The notes under the pieces were generated by a model, which searched no databases, was not told the DNA's origin, and worked only from the letters and a program-made list of their open reading frames with translations. From Candidatus Thermosaccharophagus tengchongensis (lineage in GTDB: Bacteria > Armatimonadota > Fervidibacteria > Fervidibacterales > Thermosaccharophagaceae), in the NCBI GenBank assembly GCA_032161105.1, contig JAVHTD010000002.1: a stretch of DNA of 64,000 nucleotides; one strand, given 5' to 3'. This document shows, in pieces, positions 31,519 through 64,000 of the stretch (position 1 is its first letter; each line of letters begins with the position of its first letter). Position numbers and translations under genes: made by a program.

Positions 31519-31732
31519 TTCACATCCCTCCCTTGAGTTTATTTTGAGCACGCCACATTCAAAGCCTCACAACGCCATCATAACCATCATGTGGCAGCTT
31601 AAAGCTGCCACTAATGCGAACTCTAACTGCATCACCCTCCTTTGGTATGGGATTGACTTCACTCCCACAACCCGGCTTTAGCACAGCACAATTTGTTTGT
31701 AAAGCCTCACATCGCAATCTCGTCAAATGCCT

Positions 31733-32083
31733 GTTCGTAGTAAGCCACGAAGCGTTAGCGAAGTGGCGTTCGTATGACATTATTGACGGCACTTCACTTT
31801 GTTCCGTGCCTCACTACGAACCTTCGCCACAAAGTGAAAGCGGAGTGGCGTTCATATGACATCGTTCGTAGTAAGCCACGAAGCGATAGCGGAGTGGCGT
31901 TCATATGGCATCATTGACGGCACTCCACTTCGTTTCGTGCCTTACTACGAACCTTCGCCACGAAGCGAAAGCGGAGTGGCGTTCATATGACATCGTTCGT
32001 AGTAAGCCACGGAGCGATAGCGAAGTGGCGTTCATATAACATCGTTGACGGCACTTCACTTCGTTTCGTGCCTCACTACGAAC
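31733..32083. repeat. Tandem array of three 89-nt palindromic REP-like units, 131-bp period
   Basis: Units start GTTCGTAGTAAGCCAC at 31733, 31864 and 31995 and end CTACGAAC; the 42-nt linkers are near-identical partial copies of the unit. Confidence 0.9.
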
Positions 32084-32108
32084 CTTTGGACTCATTATCC
32101 GTTTGCAT

Positions 32109-52970: not shown

Positions 52971-54971
52971 TCACTTCGCTTGCACGGTGATGAGCGAAAA
53001 TTCATACGGCGCGAGCTTGCGTTTCGCTTCACCGAAGTCAGTTTGCACCGATATTGCCGATGCCGACCTTGATGCGTTGAACAGGGCTATGAAGTCACCA
53101 TACCATAGCGCTATCACGCCATCAATCGTTGCGAAGGTGGTAAGCCCTCGCCACATCCTGAATGGAGATATGGCTCGCCGTGTTGAAGGGGCATATCCGG
53201 AGATGTTGAGAGCGACATCCGATGCGATGAGCGCAAAGCCCCTCTCGCCAATCGTTGCTATCGGCAACCACATAACGATGCCGTCACCGATTCGCTTAGC
53301 CAGACTTGTGTATGCCTCTTTCAACACATCGCTTTTTATGTGCGCGACTTGAGTTGCATCTGAGAGAGCTGTAGGGAGTGCCCTTAAGATTTCCGTGCGC
53401 CCAGCGGCATCATTTGTGAGCAGCCTCCTTCCGATGGCGCTTGAGCCAGCTATATCAGTCCACACGCTTTCGGAGCCGATGAGCAACAGTCCGCCCCTCT
53501 CAACCCAACTCAAAATGCGTTCCAGAAGTGTTTGACTGAACACCGATCCAACTGGCACAATTAGCGCTCTGTAGTCCTCAATCGCCCCATCACAGGCAAG
53601 ATGCTCATCAATCAAGTCGCATGGGAGAACATCGCAAATGCTCATCATGCACCTTGCGAAGGCGACCCGCAAGCTTGGATCAATGGCAAGCGAAACACTC
53701 GGAAGGAGCACGGCGACATCGGTCAAATGCCTGCGCTCCGGGATGACAAACTCTCCGTCCAATACCATCTGTAAAAGAGCTTGCAGATTGTTGAAGCTGA
53801 TGGCGACCGAGCTGGGCTGAAGCAAAGCCGAAGTGAAAGCTTGAAACCCGACAGTGCCGCTCCCATCAAGGAGGATGTTTGAGCGCCAATCAGCTGCCGC
53901 ATCATTTGGGCGCAAATCGCAAATCTTATCCACACCGTAAACTTCACACGATGACAGCAGCATGGCTGCATTGATCAATGGCATGTTTGCGTTGACCCTT
54001 ATGAATGCGCCGCCATCGGCGGATATGGCTCTTGCGGTCATGGTCATAAACCAGCTTGCAAACGGCACCGGCGTTGTTGGCACGGCAATGCACAATTTTG
54101 CCCCGGCAAAGGCTTCCCTCATATGGTGCAGAAGTTGGGAGACAAACTGCGCATTCTCAAAACCATACCAGTTGATGAAGTCAATCCAGTGACGCCGCAC
54201 GCCAGATGGGGAGTTAACCACATCCTCGCTGCTTCGCTTTATCGGGTAATCAATCTCTTCCCACGAGGTGTGCTTTGTTCCCCAAGCCTTGTTGAGCGCA
54301 CTCAGTGTGAGATAGCGAGACCTGATGTAACGCACGAATGAAAGCCTTGCGTAGTTGTCGCCACACCAAAAATCGTATGACATCACTTCGTCAGCTTTGA
54401 GTGTGCTCAAAGTTGGCACATCAAGCTGCGGCACATGAATTGTGACCATGCTAACCTTGTCGGCGAAGTGCTTTGAGAGCAGCTTTAGTGCCTTTGCACA
54501 CGCTTGCATCGTCTGCGGAGCAAACGGCGATGGTGATTCTGAAGCCCTTCCGGTTATGACGAGAAGGCTATTTGGCAGCCTCTCATTAACAAGCTTTGGC
54601 AGCTCATCAAGGTTGATTGAGATTGCGCCCGCAATCCCAAGACGCCTTGAATGGCGCACTAACTCGGCAACCTTGTTGAGCGTTGCGGAAACTTCCACCC
54701 CATCATCGTGCGCCCTCAACTCAAACTCAGCTATGCCATCAATCTTCAAACCCTCCAGAGCAAACTCCTTGAGCGTCTCTGCCAACTTCGTTACGCTCGC
54801 CGAATCTGCGGGTAGCTTCACAATTACGCGGATGGCTTTGTGGCTTTCGGAACTTTGCGCAGCATGCATTGCGCTCATCGGAACCAACGGGAGCAGCATT
54901 GACGCCATCAGCCAAATTGAGCGCATCATTGCAAGTCCGAAGTTGCGTGTGGCGTTCATGGCGCACATCAC
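52971..54971 (-). CDS. Exported GH42 (beta-galactosidase)-like protein, divergent
   Basis: Signal-like N-terminus; YIRSRYLTLSALNKAWGT..SWEEI; C-terminal trimerisation-like YRALIVP..WVERGGLL. Confidence 0.55.
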   Translation of the reverse strand: MMCAMNATRNFGLAMMRSIWLMASMLLPLVPMSAMHAAQSSESHKAIRVIVKLPADSASVTKLAETLKEFALEGLKIDGIAEFELRAHDDGVEVSATLNKVAELVRHSRRLGIAGAISINLDELPKLVNERLPNSLLVITGRASESPSPFAPQTMQACAKALKLLSKHFADKVSMVTIHVPQLDVPTLSTLKADEVMSYDFWCGDNYARLSFVRYIRSRYLTLSALNKAWGTKHTSWEEIDYPIKRSSEDVVNSPSGVRRHWIDFINWYGFENAQFVSQLLHHMREAFAGAKLCIAVPTTPVPFASWFMTMTARAISADGGAFIRVNANMPLINAAMLLSSCEVYGVDKICDLRPNDAAADWRSNILLDGSGTVGFQAFTSALLQPSSVAISFNNLQALLQMVLDGEFVIPERRHLTDVAVLLPSVSLAIDPSLRVAFARCMMSICDVLPCDLIDEHLACDGAIEDYRALIVPVGSVFSQTLLERILSWVERGGLLLIGSESVWTDIAGSSAIGRRLLTNDAAGRTEILRALPTALSDATQVAHIKSDVLKEAYTSLAKRIGDGIVMWLPIATIGERGFALIASDVALNISGYAPSTRRAISPFRMWRGLTTFATIDGVIALWYGDFIALFNASRSASAISVQTDFGEAKRKLAPYEFSLITVQAK

Positions 54972-57304
54972 ACCGCCTTTAACTTCACTATCGTAACTCC
55001 AACACCACCCTCACTTGGTGGCGCAAGCTCAAACGATTCCACATGCACATGCTTTTTCAGCAGCTCGTGCACGGCTTGACGGAGCTTGCCCTGCCCCTTT
55101 CCGTGAATTATGCTGACGGATTTGTGCCCGGCTAAAAATGCGTCGTCAAGGAATTTGTCAACGAGCGGGAGAGCCTCTTCCACCGTCTTCCCAATAATGT
55201 TCAATTTGCTCGGTGCAGAGAGCATTTTGCGCATGCGCAGCGCAGCTGCGAATGTCCCTGATTCCGACTTTCGCTCACCATGCGCCGCTTGAACCTCGCT
55301 CATGGGCACCCAAAAGCGCATCCCATCTGCTTCAATGAGCACTTGCTCAGCACTCTCCCTCACATCAATCACAGTCCCATATACCCGTATCTTTGGCACG
55401 AACACTCGCTCACCAACATTGGGCAGGTGAACAGCTTTAGCCCTGCCGTGAGTTTTTGGGGTGAATTCCCGCTTCAACTCTGCAAGGCGCCTGCGGAGCT
55501 TCTCGGTCACCACGCCCTCTTTGGCTTGCCTGCGCATCTCTTTGAGGATGGCTTCAATCTCATCGCTTGCACGCTTGATGATGTGCAATGCTTCCTCTTG
55601 TGCTTGTCTCAACACCAGCTCCCGTTCGTCATTCAGCTTTGCAAGCTCGCTCTCGTAGCGCTCAATGAGCGAGCGCAAGCTTTTTCTCTCTCCCTCAAGA
55701 GCTGCGAGCTCCGCCTCTAACTTGCCCCTTTGTATTTCAACCTCCCTGAGCGCCCTCTCCCATTCGGCAAATTTTGACTCCCTATATCGCTCCGCTTCCT
55801 CAACAACATCGGTTGGCATTCCGAGCCTCCTTGCTATGATGAGCGCGTAACTTGAGCCCGGTGAGCCCATAACGAGCCTGTAAGTTGGTTGCAGTGTTTG
55901 CAAGTCAAACTGCATTGATGCGTTCATGAACTTCGGATGCGCTTGCGCGAACGCTTTTACCTCACCAAGGTGAGTTGTGCAAACCACAACTGCACCGGTT
56001 TCGCACAGCCTCATCAGTATCGCCTTTGCCAGAGCAGCGCCCTCTTCAGGGTCTGTTCCGGCACCGAGTTCGTCAATCAAGAGGAGGGTTCTTTCGTCAG
56101 CTTGTTTAATCATGTTCACTATGTTGAGCACATGCGATGAAAATGAGCTCAAGCTCAGCTCTATGCTTTGCTCTTCACCTATGTCGGCAAACACCTTTTC
56201 AAAGACCCGTATGCGTGAACCCTCCCTCGCCGGTATGTGCATGCCAGACTGCGCCATAAGTGTGAGCAAGCCAACCGTCTTAAGCGTGACGGTTTTACCA
56301 CCCATGTTTGGACCGGTTATGACGAGCACATTGAAATCGCCACCAACATGAACATCAATTGGCACAGCTGCATCACCGAGCAATGGGTGGCGGGCACCAA
56401 GAAGCACCGTTGTTCCGTTTGGGTAAACTTCGGGTTCAACGCACTTCGTCTCACGGGAGAACTCAGCGAGGGCAAACAGCATGTCAATGTGCGCTATGGC
56501 TTGCATCGTCCGTCTGATTTCATGAAGCGAAGCAACCACATCATCAGTTAAGCTGCGCAGTATCCTTTGAACTTCTCTCTCCTCATCCAGTTGCGATTCT
56601 CGCAGCTCATTCCCCAGCTCAACTATGCTTTCCGGTTCAATGAAGAGTGTGAGCCCAGAGGATGACTTGTCATGCACAACGCCTCTTATTGCATGCCTGT
56701 GGGACGATTTGATCGGTATGCAGTATCGCCCACCTCGGAGCGTGACGATTGGCTCCTGAATCACATGTTGCATCCTTGGTTCAGCGAGCAATGCGTGTAG
56801 CCTTCCCAAGATTGCCTCACGCAATGAGCGTATGCGCTCCCTTACATGGCGCAGCCTTTGCGATGCGCCATCAACTACATTCCCCCTTTCATCAATGCAC
56901 GACCGCACTCGTTGAATAAGCCATCTCAAGTCGCTTATCTCCCCGGAGAGGGTTGCCAACGGTTCTGGCAATTCACCGTGCCTCTCAAGCTCAACCTTGA
57001 CATCAAGCGCTGCCGACAGCGATGCAGCAATGGCGAGCAGCTCCTCTGGCTCAAGCAAAGCACCGGAGCTTGCACGCTCAAGTTCGCTGCGGATATCCCT
57101 CACTGCGCCAATTGGTGGTATGCCATTCCTCTCAAGCCATCTTCGCACCGAGGTTGTTTCACCGAGTCGCCTTTTGACTTCATCAAAGCAAGTTGATGGC
57201 TTCAAAGAGGCGATAAGTTCCCTGCCGAAGTTTGTCCGAGCGTGAGAGCAAACCATTCCGACGACTTTATCAAACTCAAGCAAGCTCAACACTTTCTCAT
57301 CCAT
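54968..57304 (-). CDS. mutS2: MutS2 family ATPase with C-terminal Smr domain
   Basis: LEFDKV, ITGPNMGGKT, DIGEEQSI, DELGAGTDP, TTH and IIHGKGQGKLR. Confidence 0.95.
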   Translation of the reverse strand: MDEKVLSLLEFDKVVGMVCSHARTNFGRELIASLKPSTCFDEVKRRLGETTSVRRWLERNGIPPIGAVRDIRSELERASSGALLEPEELLAIAASLSAALDVKVELERHGELPEPLATLSGEISDLRWLIQRVRSCIDERGNVVDGASQRLRHVRERIRSLREAILGRLHALLAEPRMQHVIQEPIVTLRGGRYCIPIKSSHRHAIRGVVHDKSSSGLTLFIEPESIVELGNELRESQLDEEREVQRILRSLTDDVVASLHEIRRTMQAIAHIDMLFALAEFSRETKCVEPEVYPNGTTVLLGARHPLLGDAAVPIDVHVGGDFNVLVITGPNMGGKTVTLKTVGLLTLMAQSGMHIPAREGSRIRVFEKVFADIGEEQSIELSLSSFSSHVLNIVNMIKQADERTLLLIDELGAGTDPEEGAALAKAILMRLCETGAVVVCTTHLGEVKAFAQAHPKFMNASMQFDLQTLQPTYRLVMGSPGSSYALIIARRLGMPTDVVEEAERYRESKFAEWERALREVEIQRGKLEAELAALEGERKSLRSLIERYESELAKLNDERELVLRQAQEEALHIIKRASDEIEAILKEMRRQAKEGVVTEKLRRRLAELKREFTPKTHGRAKAVHLPNVGERVFVPKIRVYGTVIDVRESAEQVLIEADGMRFWVPMSEVQAAHGERKSESGTFAAALRMRKMLSAPSKLNIIGKTVEEALPLVDKFLDDAFLAGHKSVSIIHGKGQGKLRQAVHELLKKHVHVESFELAPPSEGGVGVTIVKLKAV

Positions 57305-57426
57305 GCCTTCCAAACCCTCTCAATTGATGAGATGGTTTAGGCGCAGCCCAAGATGCTTAGCCCTTATGCAAGTAAACATTCGTGTATGACAGCCATGGTA
57401 GAAAGGCAGCAGCTGATATGTCGGCT

Positions 57427-58239
57427 TTAATCCTCAACCCAGTATGCTAACCATCGGGTGTATGGTTCAAGGTCATCATATCGGCTTGGTCGTTCCCATT
57501 GAATTTCAATGTGGCGTGTGAGCCTATGTTGAAGGAGCATTTCAAGTGCTTCAGGGGATAGCTCAACGCCTCTTGGGTTCGTCCCCTTGGGTGGCATTTT
57601 CAAATATCGTTCTCTGCCGAGGAGTTGAAACACTTCCCTTTGGGCACTGACTGGGATGGCAAATAATCCGCCTTTGTCATTCCACCGTATGACAACGATG
57701 AGCAAGTCTGAACGCGGCTCATACTCCCTCACAAAGTTCTCAACCTTTATCCAGTCAACCGTCCAAACGAGCTTTATAGCTGGGATGCTTTTGGATCTTG
57801 CAGTGACAGTCTTGATTGAGACTGGCTTTCCGAAGAGAGTTACATCTGCTTCAGGGAAGTTTGGTGGTGTGTTCACATTAACGGCTGAGCGTCCGAATTT
57901 GTATATCAGCATTGAGATGAGTATCTGTTCCCTGAGCACACCCACCTCCATCCCAACTCTACCAGCACGGGATGCCTGTTGTTCGGCGATGTGAAAAAGC
58001 AGCGGCAGCTTCCGTTTGATTCGCTCGTTGAAAGACTCATCATCAAGCAAACAAGTTATATCACGCTCTTTCGAGCCTATCTTACCGCTGTATGGCGCGG
58101 GCGTTTTATCGCTCGGCTTGTCATAAAATGCCGATGCGGCGTTGAATGATATTCCAAGCAGTAGCGTGAGAAGGACGAGCAACAGGTGGATTTGCATTGG
58201 CTTAGCAATACGCCTGCCTTGCATGTCTGTGGCAATCAT
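57427..58239 (-). CDS. ThaI-family type II restriction endonuclease-like protein with N-terminal signal peptide
   Basis: KLPLLFHIAE..SRAGRVGMEVGVLREQILISMLIYKFG, EADV, VSIKT, KLVWTVD and GTNPRGVE resemble ThaI-family PD-(D/E)xK nucleases as I recall them; RRIAK-LLLVLLTLLLGISF-NAASA leader. Confidence 0.75.
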   Translation of the reverse strand: MIATDMQGRRIAKPMQIHLLLVLLTLLLGISFNAASAFYDKPSDKTPAPYSGKIGSKERDITCLLDDESFNERIKRKLPLLFHIAEQQASRAGRVGMEVGVLREQILISMLIYKFGRSAVNVNTPPNFPEADVTLFGKPVSIKTVTARSKSIPAIKLVWTVDWIKVENFVREYEPRSDLLIVVIRWNDKGGLFAIPVSAQREVFQLLGRERYLKMPPKGTNPRGVELSPEALEMLLQHRLTRHIEIQWERPSRYDDLEPYTRWLAYWVED

Positions 58240-58538
58240 GCCAACCACTCTCCGTTTTGTGCGCTGAGCACAATTTTTAAATGCAACTTGCACCGTTGAA
58301 GTGAATTCGTAAACTGTGGGTTGATGGACTCCAATAGCTTCCTAACGGTTCATTGCCTTCGGCTCAACCAAATAGGGCATGGAAGCGATAAAAGGCGAAT
58401 GCAGTAAAGGTCTCGCACCTAAGCGAGTTCACAGTTACTATCCCTATGGCAGCTTACCTTTGCATGCTACCATTGTAGCTCCAAAAGGATTCGCAGTCAA
58501 CTGCGTGACTCCAGCACTGTTTGAGAGTGGCGATCAAG

Positions 58539-58745
58539 ATGGTTGAGGAGTATGCTTCAAAGTTGAAGGAGATTGCCGATGGTAGGAAGACGGCGAAAGA
58601 TTTCATTGCCGATGAGGTGAAGGAGGAAACATCAACGGTAGGAGAGCTTTTGCGTCTTTTCCGTGAATTGCTGGAGAGGATGGAGCGGTCACATAGAGAG
58701 GAAGGTGGTGAGGGGGAAGAGGGACGACCTTTGACTGAGGTGTAA
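58539..58745 (+). other. Short charged helical ORF, probably a gene fragment
   Basis: Glu/Lys-rich 68-aa ORF with protein-like composition; no motif recognised. Confidence 0.3.
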
Positions 58746-59079
58746 GGGAAGCAAAAGTTGCTATTCGGAGTCGGCGTTACAGATTACAGTCTAAACCCTG
58801 TGGGATGAGTTAAGCTGCTCATGGTTATGTGGTTTGGCGCTCGGTGATTCGGTATCAACCAGTGGCTAAAGCTATAGCATGAGGTGGAATGCGCAGTCCG
58901 TAAATGCTCAATGTATAACTTGCAACGCTAAATGGGCTGTCCATCTCATCGTCCTTAGCCAGTGGTCATTGACGAAAAATTTTGGCACTGAATCCATGTG
59001 GTGATAATGTGCACGGAAATTGGCTTGCGCAGTATTCATACAGGACACAAAATTTTGACACAGGGGTGAATTTTCAGGG

Positions 59080-59340
59080 AGGCGAGAACTCTGGAAGCGG
59101 TCGTTAACTTGCTTGATAGATTTTTGGATTGGCTCTATCGCTGCTTCTTTCGTTGGCGAGAGTTAAGGGGGCTTTACGAAAGCGCTATCGGGCGTGCAAG
59201 AGGCGATGAGGCATTGAAAAGGCAGAGTTGGAAATGTTGAGGCAATGGCTTGAAGATGACGCAAAAACGGTAGGGGCACTGATTGGCATCGGTGGGCAAG
59301 GGAAAACCTACTTGGCGGCAAAGTTTGCAGAAAATGGAAT
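59080..59340 (+). pseudogene. Remnant of a STAND/NB-ARC-type P-loop NTPase
   Basis: ELEMLRQWLEDD..VGALIGIGGQGKTYLAAKF Walker A; the upstream segment is in another frame; the reading frame runs into palindromic repeat DNA. Confidence 0.6.
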
Positions 59341-59469
59341 GCGCCCGAAAGGAAGCGGGCGGATTTTCATCCGCCCATACGAAAATTTCATCATCAACTT
59401 TGGGCTAAAGCCATAGAATGGGGTGCATTACTGCACCAACTTTGTGGTTCACTGCGAAGGGCAAGAAAG

Positions 59470-59554
59470 GTTCGTAGTAAGGCACGAAGCGTTAGCGGAG
59501 TGCCGTGAAAAACAGAAACGCCACTCCACTTTCGTTTCGTGGCTTACTACGAAC
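59470..59554. repeat. Single palindromic element of the same family as the 31733 array
   Basis: GTTCGTAGTAAGGCACGAAGCGTTAGCGGAGTG...CGTGGCTTACTACGAAC. Confidence 0.85.
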
Positions 59555-59617
59555 AAAAGAGGCTCGTAGTGAGTGCCAAAGAAAATGTGTTGCATGAGTG
59601 AATGAAATGAGATGTGC

Positions 59618-59672
59618 GTAGGGGCGCATGAAATGCGCCCGCAAAAAGCGGGCAGATTTCATCTGCCCCTAC
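59618..59672. repeat. GTAG-class REP doublet (REPIN-like)
   Basis: GTAGGGGCGCATGAAATGCGCCCGC-AAAAA-GCGGGCAGATTTCATCTGCCCCTAC; degenerate copy at about 59339-59380. Confidence 0.8.
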
Positions 59673-59847
59673 CGATTCGTTAAAAATGTGCCAGAAAGAA
59701 ACGGCAGAAACGCTCAACCAACAACTCACAACGCTCAAAGCATCGCATCATCCATGCCACTGGCTTTAGCCAGTGGTTGATGACGAAGCTTATGAGCGCC
59801 AATGGCAGCAATGCTAAAATTCATGGTGGAGTATAAACCTTGTCCTT

Positions 59848-60405
59848 GTGAGTAAGGGGGGACATTTCTCATGGTGCTCGGAGGAGGGTGAAACTCAACT
59901 TGCTCCGATTAAGCCGAGATTGCTTGTCGTTGACGATGTGCCCGATTTTTTGGAAGCGCTAAAGGAAAACTATCCAGAATGGGAATGGCATTATGCAGCG
60001 ACGGTGGAAGAAGCGGAAGAAGTTATTGAGCGAGAGAGACCGCATTTGGTTTTGATTGACACATGCCAAAGCGTTGAAAATCCGATGGATGTGAAAGGGT
60101 TGGAGATTTTGCGCCAACTGAAGAACCGTTTCCCACAGCAGGAGATGGTTATGGTGACATCTCAACCAGTTGGATTTGAGGAGACCAGAGAAGCATTCCG
60201 CAGCGGCGCCTACGATTACTTGTGGAAACCGCCAGAGGAATCCATCCTTAGGCAAATCGTGAGGCTTTTAGTGGAGCGAGAGGAGCAGGAGCGAAAACTG
60301 GCTTACCAGCAAACTTTGCTCAAGCGCTATTGGTTGGGTTACGAAATTCAAGTTGAGCCAGAACGGGCTGAAGTGATTTACAAAACACCAAGTTCTCCTG
60401 CCTAA
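59848..60405 (+). CDS. Response regulator receiver-domain protein, possibly a fragment
   Basis: LLVVDD, LVLID, MVTS and YDYLWKP; no output domain recognised. Confidence 0.7.
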   Translation: MSKGGHFSWCSEEGETQLAPIKPRLLVVDDVPDFLEALKENYPEWEWHYAATVEEAEEVIERERPHLVLIDTCQSVENPMDVKGLEILRQLKNRFPQQEMVMVTSQPVGFEETREAFRSGAYDYLWKPPEESILRQIVRLLVEREEQERKLAYQQTLLKRYWLGYEIQVEPERAEVIYKTPSSPA

Positions 60406-60809
60406 GGCTGTAGAAATGGCTTTAGCCACAAGTGAGCTTTGCATGCTTTTGTTCTGCAGATTTTTGTCAACCCTCTGTAATGCAAATTTTCAGTCTGCCT
60501 GTGCGAACCAAAACATGTGCTATATTTACCCGAACGAAAGATTAGCCTTGGCATTCAGCCGCACAGCACTCCCACCCTGCATCAAAGGAAAAGGAAGAAG
60601 CCAAAGAGGGTATAGTTGAATTTGAGGGGCGAATTTTCAATAGGGAGGCTAAAAAGGTGCATGGGTGAAATTTTGCGATGGTGCACGGGAAAATGCTTCT
60701 ACGCCAAATTTTACTTGGCTTGATGAAGACACCAGTAGTGCCATGGTATGGCGTGAAGGTTGAAGCCTATCAGCGTCTGTGAACAACTTGGTGGTGGGTG
60801 AAGACCAAA

Positions 60810-63800
60810 ATGCCATTTGCAATATTTCGCAACCTCTGTCCAAACTGCGGCGGACACATAAATGCCGAGCGATTGGAATTAGGGCTTGCGTGTGAAAATT
60901 GCCTACAAATTGGCGATTTGAAGAAAACGGAGTCCATCCAGCAGCCACTGTGCGAACTTTTGAAGAGAGAAAACAACCTACGGAATTACCGCTGGGTTTG
61001 CTACTTGCACGAGACCGAAAAAGCATTTGAGGACTTTTTCCGGCGCCACCTCGGTTTTGAACTTTGGTCGCTTCAGAGGGTTTGGGCGAGGCGGGTGCTT
61101 TTGGGCGAAAGTTTCGCACTTATCGCACCAACGGGCGTGGGCAAAACCACATTCGGAATCTCAATGGCTCACTTCCTGCACGGAACCGCATACATTATCG
61201 TCCCGACAAGGATGCTCGTTGAGCAGGTCGCTGAAAGGTGTCAAGCCTTCGGGAACAAAAAGGTTGTCGCCTATTTGGGGCGGGCGAGAGAGCGGAAGGC
61301 AATTGAATCGGGCGACTACGAAATTCTCGTCACGACCAGCATGTTCCTTGCAACGAGTTTTGACTTGCTCAACGGGCGGCGTTTTGACTTCGTTTTCGTT
61401 GACGATGTTGATGCACTGCTTAAATCTGGGCGCAATGTTGACAAAGTCCTGAAATTGCTCGGTTTCTCCGACGAGGAAATTGAAAACGCATGGGCTCAAG
61501 TGACCAAAAAAGTGCCAGCCATTGCGGCGGTGAGTGAGGAATCCGAAGAAGTTGAGGAAACCGAAGACATTTTTGGTGAAGCAGAAGAACAGGAAAGTGA
61601 ACTTGAAACTCCCTCGTCCCTCGCCCCTCGTCCCCCGTCCCGCCCGAAGGGCATCCTTGTCGTTTCATCAGCAACTTTGCGACCGAGAACGAAGCGGGTT
61701 GCTTTGTTCCGAACTTTACTTGGTTTTGAGGTCGCTCCCGTTAGAGTCACCGTCCGCAACATTTGCGATGCTGTCAAGTGGGTTAAGGACTTTGAGGACG
61801 CAAAGCGCCAACTTGTCCGTTGGGTTAAACTGCTCGGTGATGGCGGGCTTGTGTTCGTTTCTGGGGAATTAGGGCGAGATGGTGTTGCGGAAATCACTTC
61901 CCACTTGAGACGGGAAGGCATCGCCGCTGCGCCTTACGATGACTTGGACTTAGAGGCATTTCGGTGCGGCGAAATCAAAGTCGCTGTCGGAATAGCGATC
62001 CCGACCAACGCTTTGGTTCGCGGCGTTGACTTGCCTGAAACAATTCGCTACGCCATCTTCGTTGATGTGCCCAAAATCAGTTTCCCACTGACAACTGATG
62101 ACCCGCGCAACTTTGTTGGGCTTTTATTGGCTTTGCGGGAAGTGAGCGATGACAAGGCTCGCATTGACGCCTATTTGTCAACGATGCGCCAATACCGCTA
62201 CCTTCGCCCCGACCAACCTTTGCCGAGGCGAGTTCAGGAAATCGCCGATTATCTGAGGCAGCAATTTAGCGACGAGCAAGTTTTGGCGAAACTTGAAAGT
62301 GCCGAGACTGTAACTTTGCACCGCCGCAACGGTCAATTTTTCGTCACATTCGGCGATGCGGCAAGTTACTTGCAGGCTTCAGGTCGGACATCCCGCCTTT
62401 TTGCTGGCGGAATAAGTCGCGGCGCGAGTTTGATCCTCGCTTGGGACAAAAAAGCCTTCAACAGTTTGCTACGAAGGCTTAGGCTCTTTTACGATGAGGT
62501 TGAGTTCGCCAACGCCGACGAGGTGGACTGGAAGACGGAATTGCGCAAAGTTGATGAAGACCGACAGCGCATCAAATCCTTGCTATCCGTAGGGGCAGTT
62601 TCAGTCGCAGCGAAAGAGACCCGCCCGGAAATTCGCACAACGCTTGTCATCGTTGAATCGCCGAACAAGGCTCGGACAATCGCTCACTTCTTCGGGACGC
62701 CGCAACGGCGAATCATCAATGGCTTGTCAGTTTGGGAGGTCACAACGGGAGACAGGCTTCTCGCCATTACAGCATCGCTCGGTCATGTTTTTGACTTGGT
62801 TGAGCGTGAGGGAATTTACGGCGTCCTTCAACTTGACAGCCAATTCGTGCCTGTCTACGGCTCAATCAAGTCATGTCCCAATTGCGGTGAGCAAACAACT
62901 GAGGAAACTTGTTCTTGTGGCAAGCCGCCAGAGAGGGACAAGTTAACGCTGATTCAAGCGTTGCAGAGGGTTGCCGTTCAATTTGACGAAATCGTGATTG
63001 CCACTGACCCAGATTCAGAAGGCGAAAAAATCGGTTACGATTTGATGGCTGCGCTCAAGCCTTTCAATCCGAACATCGTCCGAGCGGAATTCCACGAAGT
63101 CACGAGGCGCGCCTTCACTCAAGCCCTTCAATCGCCGCGAGAGATTGAGCGAAACCTTGTCAAGGCACAAGTGACGAGGCGAATTCTTGACAGGTGGGTT
63201 GGGTTTGAGTTATCGCGACGGCTTTGGCAAGTTTTTGACCGTTATGACCTTTCTGCTGGACGGGTCCAAACCCCTGTCCTTGGCTGGGTTATAGAGCGGA
63301 CGGACTTGTCGCGTCAAAAGAAGGCACGCATCATTGTCCAACTCGCTGACCCCAAATCCAAAACCCAAATCCAACTCACCTTTGAACACGAGAATATCCC
63401 GCAAGCCCGGAAGTTGTTTGAGCGGTTGGAGCAAGCAAAACTCAGCGTCAGTGAAATCGGAGAAGAAATTGTCAACCCGCAACCACCTTACAACACGGGA
63501 ACGCTACTTGCCGATGCCGGTTCGTTCGCATCGGCAACTCAGGTGATGGATGTTTTGCAGGATTTGTTTGAGCGAGGTCTCATCACCTACCACCGAACCG
63601 ATAGCGTTCGCGTTTCCGATGCCGGTTTGAAAGTTGCTGAGGAGTTGTTGAAGGAGCGTTATGACCCGTCGCTGTTTCAACCGCGCCGTTACGGAACCGA
63701 AGGTGCCCACGAATGCATTCGCCCAACCCGTCCCTTGACAGAAGACGATTTGAGGCTTTGGCTTTCCGCAGGTCGCGTCTCCCTTGACAACCCAAGCCTT

Positions 63801-64000
63801 GCCTTGCGAATTTACGGCATGGTTGTGCGCAGGTTCTTGGCATCGCAAATGAAACCTGCAAGGGTAAGGAAAGTCAAGGTCACTTTGCAGTTGGGCAATT
63901 GGCAGCACGAATGGGAAGTTATCGCCGAGGTCATTGAGGAAGGTTTCCATCGTGTCTTTCCGCTTCGCGTTCAACCTGTTACGCCCGAGATGAAAGTTGT
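60810..64000 (+). CDS. rgy: Reverse gyrase (3' partial; not in ORF track)
   Basis: Manual translation: MPFAIFRNLCPNCGG..CENC zinc finger, APTGVGKT, VDDVDA, VSSAT, RGVDLP, IVESPNKA (Toprim), ATDPDSEGE, SAGRVQ and ITYHRTDS (catalytic Tyr at 63588-63590, same frame as the start). Confidence 0.96.
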   Translation, partial: MPFAIFRNLCPNCGGHINAERLELGLACENCLQIGDLKKTESIQQPLCELLKRENNLRNYRWVCYLHETEKAFEDFFRRHLGFELWSLQRVWARRVLLGESFALIAPTGVGKTTFGISMAHFLHGTAYIIVPTRMLVEQVAERCQAFGNKKVVAYLGRARERKAIESGDYEILVTTSMFLATSFDLLNGRRFDFVFVDDVDALLKSGRNVDKVLKLLGFSDEEIENAWAQVTKKVPAIAAVSEESEEVEETEDIFGEAEEQESELETPSSLAPRPPSRPKGILVVSSATLRPRTKRVALFRTLLGFEVAPVRVTVRNICDAVKWVKDFEDAKRQLVRWVKLLGDGGLVFVSGELGRDGVAEITSHLRREGIAAAPYDDLDLEAFRCGEIKVAVGIAIPTNALVRGVDLPETIRYAIFVDVPKISFPLTTDDPRNFVGLLLALREVSDDKARIDAYLSTMRQYRYLRPDQPLPRRVQEIADYLRQQFSDEQVLAKLESAETVTLHRRNGQFFVTFGDAASYLQASGRTSRLFAGGISRGASLILAWDKKAFNSLLRRLRLFYDEVEFANADEVDWKTELRKVDEDRQRIKSLLSVGAVSVAAKETRPEIRTTLVIVESPNKARTIAHFFGTPQRRIINGLSVWEVTTGDRLLAITASLGHVFDLVEREGIYGVLQLDSQFVPVYGSIKSCPNCGEQTTEETCSCGKPPERDKLTLIQALQRVAVQFDEIVIATDPDSEGEKIGYDLMAALKPFNPNIVRAEFHEVTRRAFTQALQSPREIERNLVKAQVTRRILDRWVGFELSRRLWQVFDRYDLSAGRVQTPVLGWVIERTDLSRQKKARIIVQLADPKSKTQIQLTFEHENIPQARKLFERLEQAKLSVSEIGEEIVNPQPPYNTGTLLADAGSFASATQVMDVLQDLFERGLITYHRTDSVRVSDAGLKVAEELLKERYDPSLFQPRRYGTEGAHECIRPTRPLTEDDLRLWLSAGRVSLDNPSLALRIYGMVVRRFLASQMKPARVRKVKVTLQLGNWQHEWEVIAEVIEEGFHRVFPLRVQPVTPEMKV
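61611..61641 (+). repeat. Heptamer tandem repeat inside the reverse gyrase gene
   Basis: CCCTCGT CCCTCGC CCCTCGT CCCCCGT CCC, read in frame as PSSLAPRPPS. Confidence 0.75.

Follow-up and report, generated by a model that had tools for sequence, protein, structure and literature searches.

A leader-bearing ThaI-family endonuclease without an adjacent methylase in Candidatus Thermosaccharophagus tengchongensis: a candidate exported restriction nuclease

Type II restriction enzymes are regarded as cytoplasmic proteins which are lethal without their partner methylase. How, then, can a genome keep such an enzyme where no DNA methyltransferase lies on either side of its gene, and what is to be made of a hydrophobic leader in front of it? 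This question is raised by a gene of the ThaI endonuclease family on contig JAVHTD010000002.1 (assembly GCA_032161105.1, Candidatus Thermosaccharophagus tengchongensis), within a stretch of 64,000 nucleotides (nt) which is called the window throughout. The answer favoured here, and given about an even chance of being right, is that the gene encodes a ThaI nuclease which is exported by the Sec route or tethered to the membrane and acts on DNA outside the cytoplasm. The gene and the parts of its product are the following:

57427..58239, minus strand: whole gene, a leader-bearing ThaI-family endonuclease of 270 amino acids plus stop, as the open reading frame (ORF) from the ATG (PF15514 at 1.3e-62)
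58192..58239, minus strand: n-region, residues 1-16, net positive (R9, R10, K13) in the translation and basic in 6/6 homologues
58144..58191, minus strand: hydrophobic h-region, residues 17-32, from the translation and a protein alignment of 19 sequences (A1), lying inside the helix predicted by AlphaFold2 at residues 14-39
58129..58143, minus strand: c-region N-A-A-S-A, residues 33-37, from the translation, with a candidate signal-peptidase site A-S-A/F (the slash marks the cleavage point)
58051..58128, minus strand: disordered linker rich in P, S, K and T, residues 38-63, ending in a conserved DITC (A1; predicted local distance difference test, pLDDT, <50 at residues 40-57)
57430..58050, minus strand: ThaI catalytic and DNA-recognition core, residues 64-270, beginning at an internal TTG (PF15514, 3NDH)

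The earlier note on this DNA had taken the core for a ThaI-like endonuclease, and this was fully borne out. The Pfam search gave a single domain match, ThaI (PF15514; E 1.3e-62, 211.6 bits, with a cut-off of 25), in which residues 64-269 span positions 1-203 of the 203 in the profile, and the sole solved structure matched, R.ThaI (3NDH, E 3.5e-56), covered the same residues; the NCBIfam search with the ThaI-type protein gave no match. According to the accessible part of the structure paper (PMC3025569), ThaI cuts CG/CG with Glu54, Asp82 and Lys93 as its catalytic residues, Met47 intercalates into the CG steps, and the base contacts are made by Glu48, Lys104, Trp107, Asn169 and Arg171. The three catalytic residues correspond to E104, D132 and K143 of the present protein, invariant in the alignment A1, and Met47, Glu48, Lys104, Trp107, Asn169 and Arg171 correspond to M97, E98, K156, W159, N221 and R223, all of them conserved. 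The motifs which the note had quoted (SRAGRVGMEVG-LRE, EADV, SIKT and WTVD) are all found and coincide with functional residues of the solved enzyme: in ThaI numbering, GMEVG..LRE contains M47, E48 and E54, EADV contains E80 and D82, SIKT contains K93, and WTVD contains W107. Since every residue named in the structure paper is invariant or nearly so across the 19 aligned sequences, the core can be taken, as read from its sequence, for a genuine ThaI enzyme in which nothing known to govern activity or CGCG specificity has been lost, and the protein is apparently, by prediction, active on CG^CG.

Moreover, the protein is kept by selection. The window's own genome (G000; 2.74 Mb in 44 contigs, completeness 97.4%) contains a single ThaI gene, the core of which shows ratios of nonsynonymous to synonymous substitution rates (dN/dS) of 0.05-0.09 between congeners. 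Population variants were taken from four hot-spring metagenome assemblies, in which three variants fell within the gene, all three synonymous, and far more fell in the spacer upstream of it. From the core ratios and the synonymous variants together it follows that the protein is maintained, with strong purifying selection on the core. A metagenome scan with the protein returned just 1 locus, which belongs to the same species (99% identity), and gave no further context for the database homologues P0002 or P0004. Another kind of nuclease was also considered and set aside. The domains of restriction-endonuclease fold found in polymorphic toxins follow a large N-terminal region that serves delivery, and an immunity gene lies beside them; the present protein has 270 residues and one domain, and its neighbours are mutS2 and non-coding DNA, so that it was not counted among them.

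The leader has no counterpart in ordinary members of the family, which start about 7 residues ahead of the core (MSSRLIE...). Its 63 residues begin with a basic segment, MIATDMQGRRIAKPMQ, and continue with the hydrophobic IHLLLVLLTLLLGISF (residues 17-32) and with NAASA/F (33-38); RRIAK occupies residues 9-13, and a stretch rich in P, S and K runs from residue 39 to about 59. The translation therefore agrees with the note's description of a tripartite leader (RRIAK, a hydrophobic segment, NAASA/F) followed by a Pro/Ser/Lys linker. AlphaFold2, run on the alignment, gave a helix at residues 14-39, disorder at 40-57 (pLDDT <50) and a confident core. In addition, six leader-carrying proteins of 265-273 amino acids (P0001-P0006) were obtained from a large protein database, the source taxa of P0003 and P0006 being Armatimonadota and Fervidibacterota. 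The leaders of these six share 23-60% identity, and in 6/6 leader homologues a net-positive n-region (net charge +2 to +4) is followed by 11-16 hydrophobic residues and then by a polar linker. Leader-bearing ThaI loci were also found in congeners (L008, L009 and L010, the window being the fourth such locus), and there the hydrophobic 13-mers score 2.55-2.69. As regards the small residues at positions -3 and -1, the window has A-S-A/F, L009 and L010 have A-F-A/T, and P0002-P0004 have weaker sites.

For comparison across the family, 80 ThaI loci from contigs of one genome per species were joined with the window into a set of 81, the neighbouring ORFs of which were clustered. The open in-frame stretch before the core extends over 60-97 codons at the four leader loci, as against at most 47, and usually 7-20, at 77/77 others, and the long open leader is for this reason more than chance would give. 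The leader may be either of two things, a cleaved Sec signal (at A-S-A/F) or an uncleaved signal anchor with a tether of 25 amino acids, and the distribution of charge favours a topology with the N-terminus inside and the C-terminus outside. Signal peptides of the twin-arginine translocation (Tat) route carry a conserved twin-arginine motif. Here the RR pair is present in the window and P0006 only and is missing from P0002-P0005, and export by the twin-arginine route was rejected because the pair is not conserved. A search of the ESM Atlas with residues 1-63 gave no usable match, the leader had no other match in G000, and a search for solute-binding proteins, intended as a benchmark of the organism's own signal peptides, returned 1 match only.

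The partner which this nuclease would be expected to have is well defined. The methylase linked to ThaI genes belongs to a single family of about 300-320 amino acids, an N4/N6 DNA methylase (PF01555) with an SPPY motif, and it occurs at 76/81 loci, at 71 of them immediately downstream and on the same strand. The loci lacking it are the window, L008, L009, L010 and L066, the contig of the last ending 214 nt past the gene; an adjacent methylase is thus found at 0/4 leader-bearing loci versus 76/76 assessable leaderless ones. For the window itself, the ORF list and a hidden Markov model (HMM) of the ThaI-linked methylases confirm what the note had stated, that no methyltransferase lies on either flank; with this model the 1.55 kb upstream gave no signal (best 2.3 bits). 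A class-wide survey of 24 genomes, 4 of the window's genus and 20 of the sister family, showed the leader-bearing gene in 4/4 species of the genus, which are the window's and three congeners (G001, G002 and G003). In the sister family, a leaderless ThaI gene was found in 7/20 genomes, in 7/7 with an adjacent ThaI-type methylase and in 0/7 with a hydrophobic extension. When a tree was built from 90 cores, the leader-bearing genes formed a monophyletic clade (support 99) on a long stem of 0.48, and this clade falls into a set of 20 rows (support 97) together with 13 leaderless rows, 12 of Armatimonadota/Fervidibacteria and 1 labelled Chloroflexota. This placement points to a single origin of the leader-bearing gene within the lineage, from a resident restriction-modification (R-M) system.

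A conserved basic-hydrophobic-polar leader, placed on an unchanged and selected enzyme without methylase linkage, would be accounted for most simply if the nuclease domain had been moved out of the cytoplasm. In the ancestor of the genus, which consists of thermophilic Armatimonadota (class Fervidibacteria), a gene would have been copied from the resident ThaI R-M system, uncoupled from its methylase and placed upstream of mutS2, and the copy would have gained at its N-terminus a signal peptide or anchor of the Sec type, together with a flexible linker of about 25 amino acids. The positive n-region would stay in the cytoplasm, the hydrophobic helix would enter the membrane, and the nuclease domain would be translocated, to become periplasmic after cleavage at A-S-A/F or to stay anchored on the outside of the inner membrane. 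Outside the cytoplasm it would cut duplex DNA that is unmethylated at its CGCG sites, possibly DNA arriving by transformation or DNA from the environment, and an adjacent methylase would no longer be required, since the chromosome would be out of reach. Export, topology, leader cleavage, enzymatic activity and biological substrate are all points which we infer from the sequences.

An extension of this proposal, tentative and rather unlikely, is that the R-M system has been split across the envelope, a nuclease in the periplasm or on the outer face working together with an unlinked cytoplasmic methylase, forming N4-methylcytosine (m4C), which marks kin DNA. CGCG would then be cut at the only stage where transforming DNA is still duplex, and the methylase, kept in three congeners, would let released or kin-derived DNA survive uptake; in the window's species, apparently without the methylase, the exported nuclease would be harmless to its own chromosome. 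Of the competence genes, those for ComEC and DprA were found, yet as nearly all control genomes have them too, they carry no information on this point.

The readings to be weighed against an exported nuclease differ in whether the leader is made, whether the enzyme still cuts and where its methylase is. The first of these points turns on two elements upstream of the gene, the second of them seen in an alignment (A2) of the DNA upstream of the start in the four congeners:

58250..58253, minus strand: GGAG, Shine-Dalgarno-like, 10 nt before the ATG at 58239 and also present in congeners
58273..58280, minus strand: TTAAAAAT, possible -10 element within a block ahead of the start which is conserved in the four congeners (A2)

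Were translation to start at the internal TTG (residue 64, LLDDESF), the leader would not be made and the product would be an ordinary solitary cytoplasmic ThaI, an outcome which the earlier note had named as fatal to its own reading. The Pfam profile and the ordinary members do begin about 7 residues before residue 64, and the TTG is there in the window, L009 and L010. Nevertheless, L008 has CTG in its place and offers no ATG, GTG or TTG from the hydrophobic segment to the core, and the internal codon has no Shine-Dalgarno sequence before it at three loci (the window, L008 and L009) and just a weak AAGG at the fourth (L010), whereas the upstream start has one in 4/4 congeners, as GGAGG 9 nt before the homologous ATG in L009 and L010 and as GGAG in L008. 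Furthermore, the frame is open, the proportion of nonsynonymous differences in the leader is below that of synonymous ones (pN<pS) in 5/5 pairs, and the hydrophobic pattern is kept in 6/6 homologues; dN/dS in the leader is 0.22 for L009/L010, the sole leader pair with clearly unsaturated dS, which is looser than in the core but not neutral. The leader is therefore very probably translated, and a start at the TTG is highly improbable. A start at the GTG at 58293, which would give the longest frame (288 amino acids), was also judged unlikely, having no Shine-Dalgarno sequence and drawing the conserved upstream block into the ORF. That block, about 30 nt upstream of the start, contains the TAAAAT-like possible -10 element; a scan for consensus promoters and terminators gave counts at chance level and did not call this element. 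A protein that is made with its leader could still have ceased to be a double-strand CGCG cutter, having been co-opted together with mutS2 to bind or nick DNA, or be normally silent, and in either case it would need no protection. This is quite unlikely. It would fit the position on the same strand just upstream of mutS2 in 4/4 genomes (two of them with gaps of about 26-30 nt), the long stem branch of 0.48, suggestive of a functional shift, and the inactive homologues of restriction endonucleases cited in the accessible text of PMC3488263. Against it stand the retention of all the catalytic, intercalating and base-contacting ThaI residues, a core dN/dS of 0.05-0.09, which means selection on the whole domain, and the sister family, which has no mutS2 linkage, so that this linkage may merely mark the insertion site.

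A more serious rival, possible but doubtful, is a separated R-M system, in which an unlinked ThaI-type m4C methylase protects the chromosome and the nuclease acts on cytoplasmic DNA; in G000 that methylase would be missing through incomplete assembly, or would have been replaced by a non-orthologous one. A whole group of observations weighs against export and, for the most part, on the side of this rival. G001, G002 and G003 each contain an unlinked ThaI-type methylase, 85-100% identical to the methylase of locus L016 and under strong purifying selection (dN/dS 0.03-0.045), so that what the earlier note had said would count against it, a CGCG methylase elsewhere in the genome, is borne out in part, by a ThaI-type methylase in three of the four congeners, although none was found in the window's own genome. 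The original leaderless partner of this methylase has been deleted in G001 and G002, where the solitary methylase has a DegT-type aminotransferase as its neighbour and no ThaI gene in the vicinity, and it is broken in G003 (L016, 5001-5700; the same as L099 and L110), where a leaderless ThaI gene beside the intact methylase has been interrupted by a TGA, in place of an invariant Trp near the C-terminus, and by a frameshift which leaves the rest in another frame. The only intact ThaI-family nuclease in these three genomes is the leader-bearing one. The note's remark that CGCG is frequent holds for the absolute number of sites, 134 in the window and 7302 in G000, but not in relation to base composition, from which about 247 would be expected in the window; in G000 the observed/expected ratio is 0.49, a depletion by half which suggests that the chromosome is or was exposed to a CGCG cutter. 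G000 also has further N4/N6 methylases of unassigned specificity (C19:38-1258, and C34:18414-19139, which is cut by a contig end). The co-variation of the leader with the absence of the methylase, which the note had predicted, was indeed seen (4/4 versus 76/76), but as the leader genes form one clade it is one evolutionary event. An unrelated ThaI gene of a Thermoplasmata archaeon (L020, 10-705) has a signal-like extension of 29 amino acids (MKKIHIK plus a hydrophobic stretch) and an adjacent methylase all the same; this ORF starts 9 nt from the contig edge, with no canonical start at -7, and the case is ambiguous. Separated systems are, moreover, known as a class, 57 of them being predicted among 272 solitary restriction endonuclease genes in the accessible text of PMC3488263.

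What speaks against the separated system is, to begin with, that the assembly of G000, complete to 97.4%, yielded no ThaI-type methylase. The HMM of the ThaI-linked methylases, for which the family median is 562 bits and the lowest apparently full-length member reaches 409, gave a best match of 218 bits there; no C5 methylase was found in G000 either, and a protein search with the G001 methylase gave no family member assignable to the window's species. With 70-86% identity across phyla, this family is conserved enough for any orthologue in the assembled sequence to have been detected. There are six PF01555 matches in G000, and the best methylase match is 41-47% identical to members of the ThaI-linked family. 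This closest relative belongs to a separate R-M system (L002, G000:C5:77921-79356), a convergent and overlapping pair of a 264-amino-acid N4/N6 methylase with SPPY and a 221-amino-acid BsaWI-like endonuclease (PF18643, 5.3e-10). Nevertheless, the absence from G000 is suggestive rather than secure, and a weak argument for export, because the congener methylases sit on short contigs (about 4-14 kb) and G000 lacks the aminotransferase neighbourhood seen in G001 and G002 (best match 37% identical). The leader itself is harder to reconcile with the separated system: a cytoplasmic nuclease domain would need a topology with the N-terminus outside, against n-regions of +2 to +4 in 6/6 homologues, and the separated system gives no reason for a hydrophobic leader and linker which 76 ordinary members do not have.

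Around the nuclease gene, the window has the following arrangement:

54968..57313, minus strand: mutS2 (MutS_V and Smr domains), 114 nt downstream of the ThaI gene, a conserved neighbour at the four leader loci
58294..59847, no strand: repeat-rich non-coding spacer with no methylase remnant, absent from the compact arrangement of L010 (ORF list, repeats, HMM)

At the congener leader loci the gap to mutS2 is about 26-170 nt (about 26-30 nt in two), and at 4/4 leader loci mutS2 is followed by a protein of about 660 amino acids; in the five sister-family genomes whose mutS2 upstream regions were compared, these were not syntenic and had no ThaI. In the window the downstream protein has 666 amino acids (52971-54971, minus strand), overlaps the mutS2 stop and occupies the same position in all four congeners; its N-terminus is signal-like, and its matches to glycoside hydrolase families 14 and 42 are weak, below or barely at the curated cut-offs. 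The earlier note had named mutS2 and decayed DNA as the neighbours, of which mutS2 stands; the upstream region contains no ORF longer than 74 amino acids and is repeat-rich intergenic DNA rather than a demonstrably decayed gene. Part of it is a dispersed repeat, since a 341-bp stretch (59334-59672) has a 92.7% identical copy at G000:C8:107134-107470. A hairpin at 59470-59554, with 37-nt arms, 84% complementary, and an 11-nt loop, has dozens of copies on at least 9 contigs of G000, is partly tandem with a spacing of about 130 nt (one array lies at about 31730-32090 of the window) and shows a depth about 100-fold higher in metagenome contigs; the one match in an Rfam scan of 57000-61000, to mir-627 and below threshold, coincides with this repeat. 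Beyond the spacer lie a small response regulator (59848-60405) and a reverse gyrase (60798-63998, plus strand), which runs off the window with its zinc finger, helicase, Toprim and topoisomerase domains and fits a hyperthermophilic host.

Some further observations concern restriction and methylation in this organism and in the family at large. Five 4-bp palindromes are near-absent from G000, namely CTAG (23 sites), GTAC (32), ACGT (79), TCGA (344) and GGCC (436), with observed/expected ratios of 0.008-0.038, which is very strong restriction-site avoidance; for GATC the ratio is 0.36. G000 also has a truncated N4/N6 methylase (C15:62552-63085, 177 amino acids), the N-terminal half with SPPY, which is 48% identical to the ThaI-linked methylases over 117 amino acids and looks decayed. 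Across phyla, the ThaI-linked methylases (70-86% identity among the best 120 matches) are more conserved than their endonuclease partners (about 45-58%).

The nearest known relative of the protein is R.ThaI of Thermoplasma acidophilum (3NDH, PF15514), a type IIP enzyme of the PD-(D/E)XK group cutting CG^CG, to which the core shows homology from end to end, with the same catalytic E/D/K, intercalating Met and base contacts as are given in the accessible part of PMC3025569. Unlike R.ThaI, the present protein has a leader of 63 amino acids, made of a hydrophobic helix and a linker, and no adjacent methylase, and its position beside mutS2 is fixed across the genus, unlike that of a mobile R-M cassette. 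The mature domain is, going by its sequence, a candidate thermostable CGCG cutter. As a restriction endonuclease gene without a linked methylase, and with a matching orphan methylase elsewhere in 3/4 congener genomes, it also resembles the solitary enzymes and separated systems of Ershova et al. (2012), as far as the accessible text of PMC3488263 describes them; the conserved export-type leader is the distinguishing feature here. That text explains solitary enzymes by a methylase encoded far off, by lack of activity or expression, by absence of sites, by protection through the nucleoid and by repair; it does not list export and never mentions a signal peptide, secretion, the periplasm or the membrane. 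If the exported nuclease is real, export would be a further solution for solitary restriction enzymes, additional to those explanations, and thermophiles would cut DNA sequence-specifically in their periplasm or at their surface, in the control of uptake, the processing of nutrient DNA or defence.

In the open-access literature, to which the search was confined (the older subscription literature lying outside its scope), no description of an exported type II restriction enzyme was found; what came up on restriction endonucleases outside the cytoplasm were papers on solitary enzymes. Immuno-electron microscopy of the 1980s is said to have placed EcoRI at the cell envelope. Functionally, the ThaI protein would resemble the membrane-anchored ecto-nucleases. 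According to the parts of the papers accessible, NucA of B. subtilis has an N-terminal transmembrane helix and a periplasmic nuclease domain which aids the uptake of transforming DNA (PMC8262900), and Nuc2 of S. aureus is a membrane-anchored ecto-nuclease (PMC3994088). What these two and EndA of S. pneumoniae would share with the ThaI protein, as far as those sources go, is an N-terminal transmembrane helix or anchor with an extracytoplasmic nuclease domain, predicted only in the present case, and, by a functional analogy proposed here, action on incoming or environmental DNA. The folds are unrelated, and those nucleases are non-specific, whereas the protein described here is a sequence-specific type II restriction enzyme.

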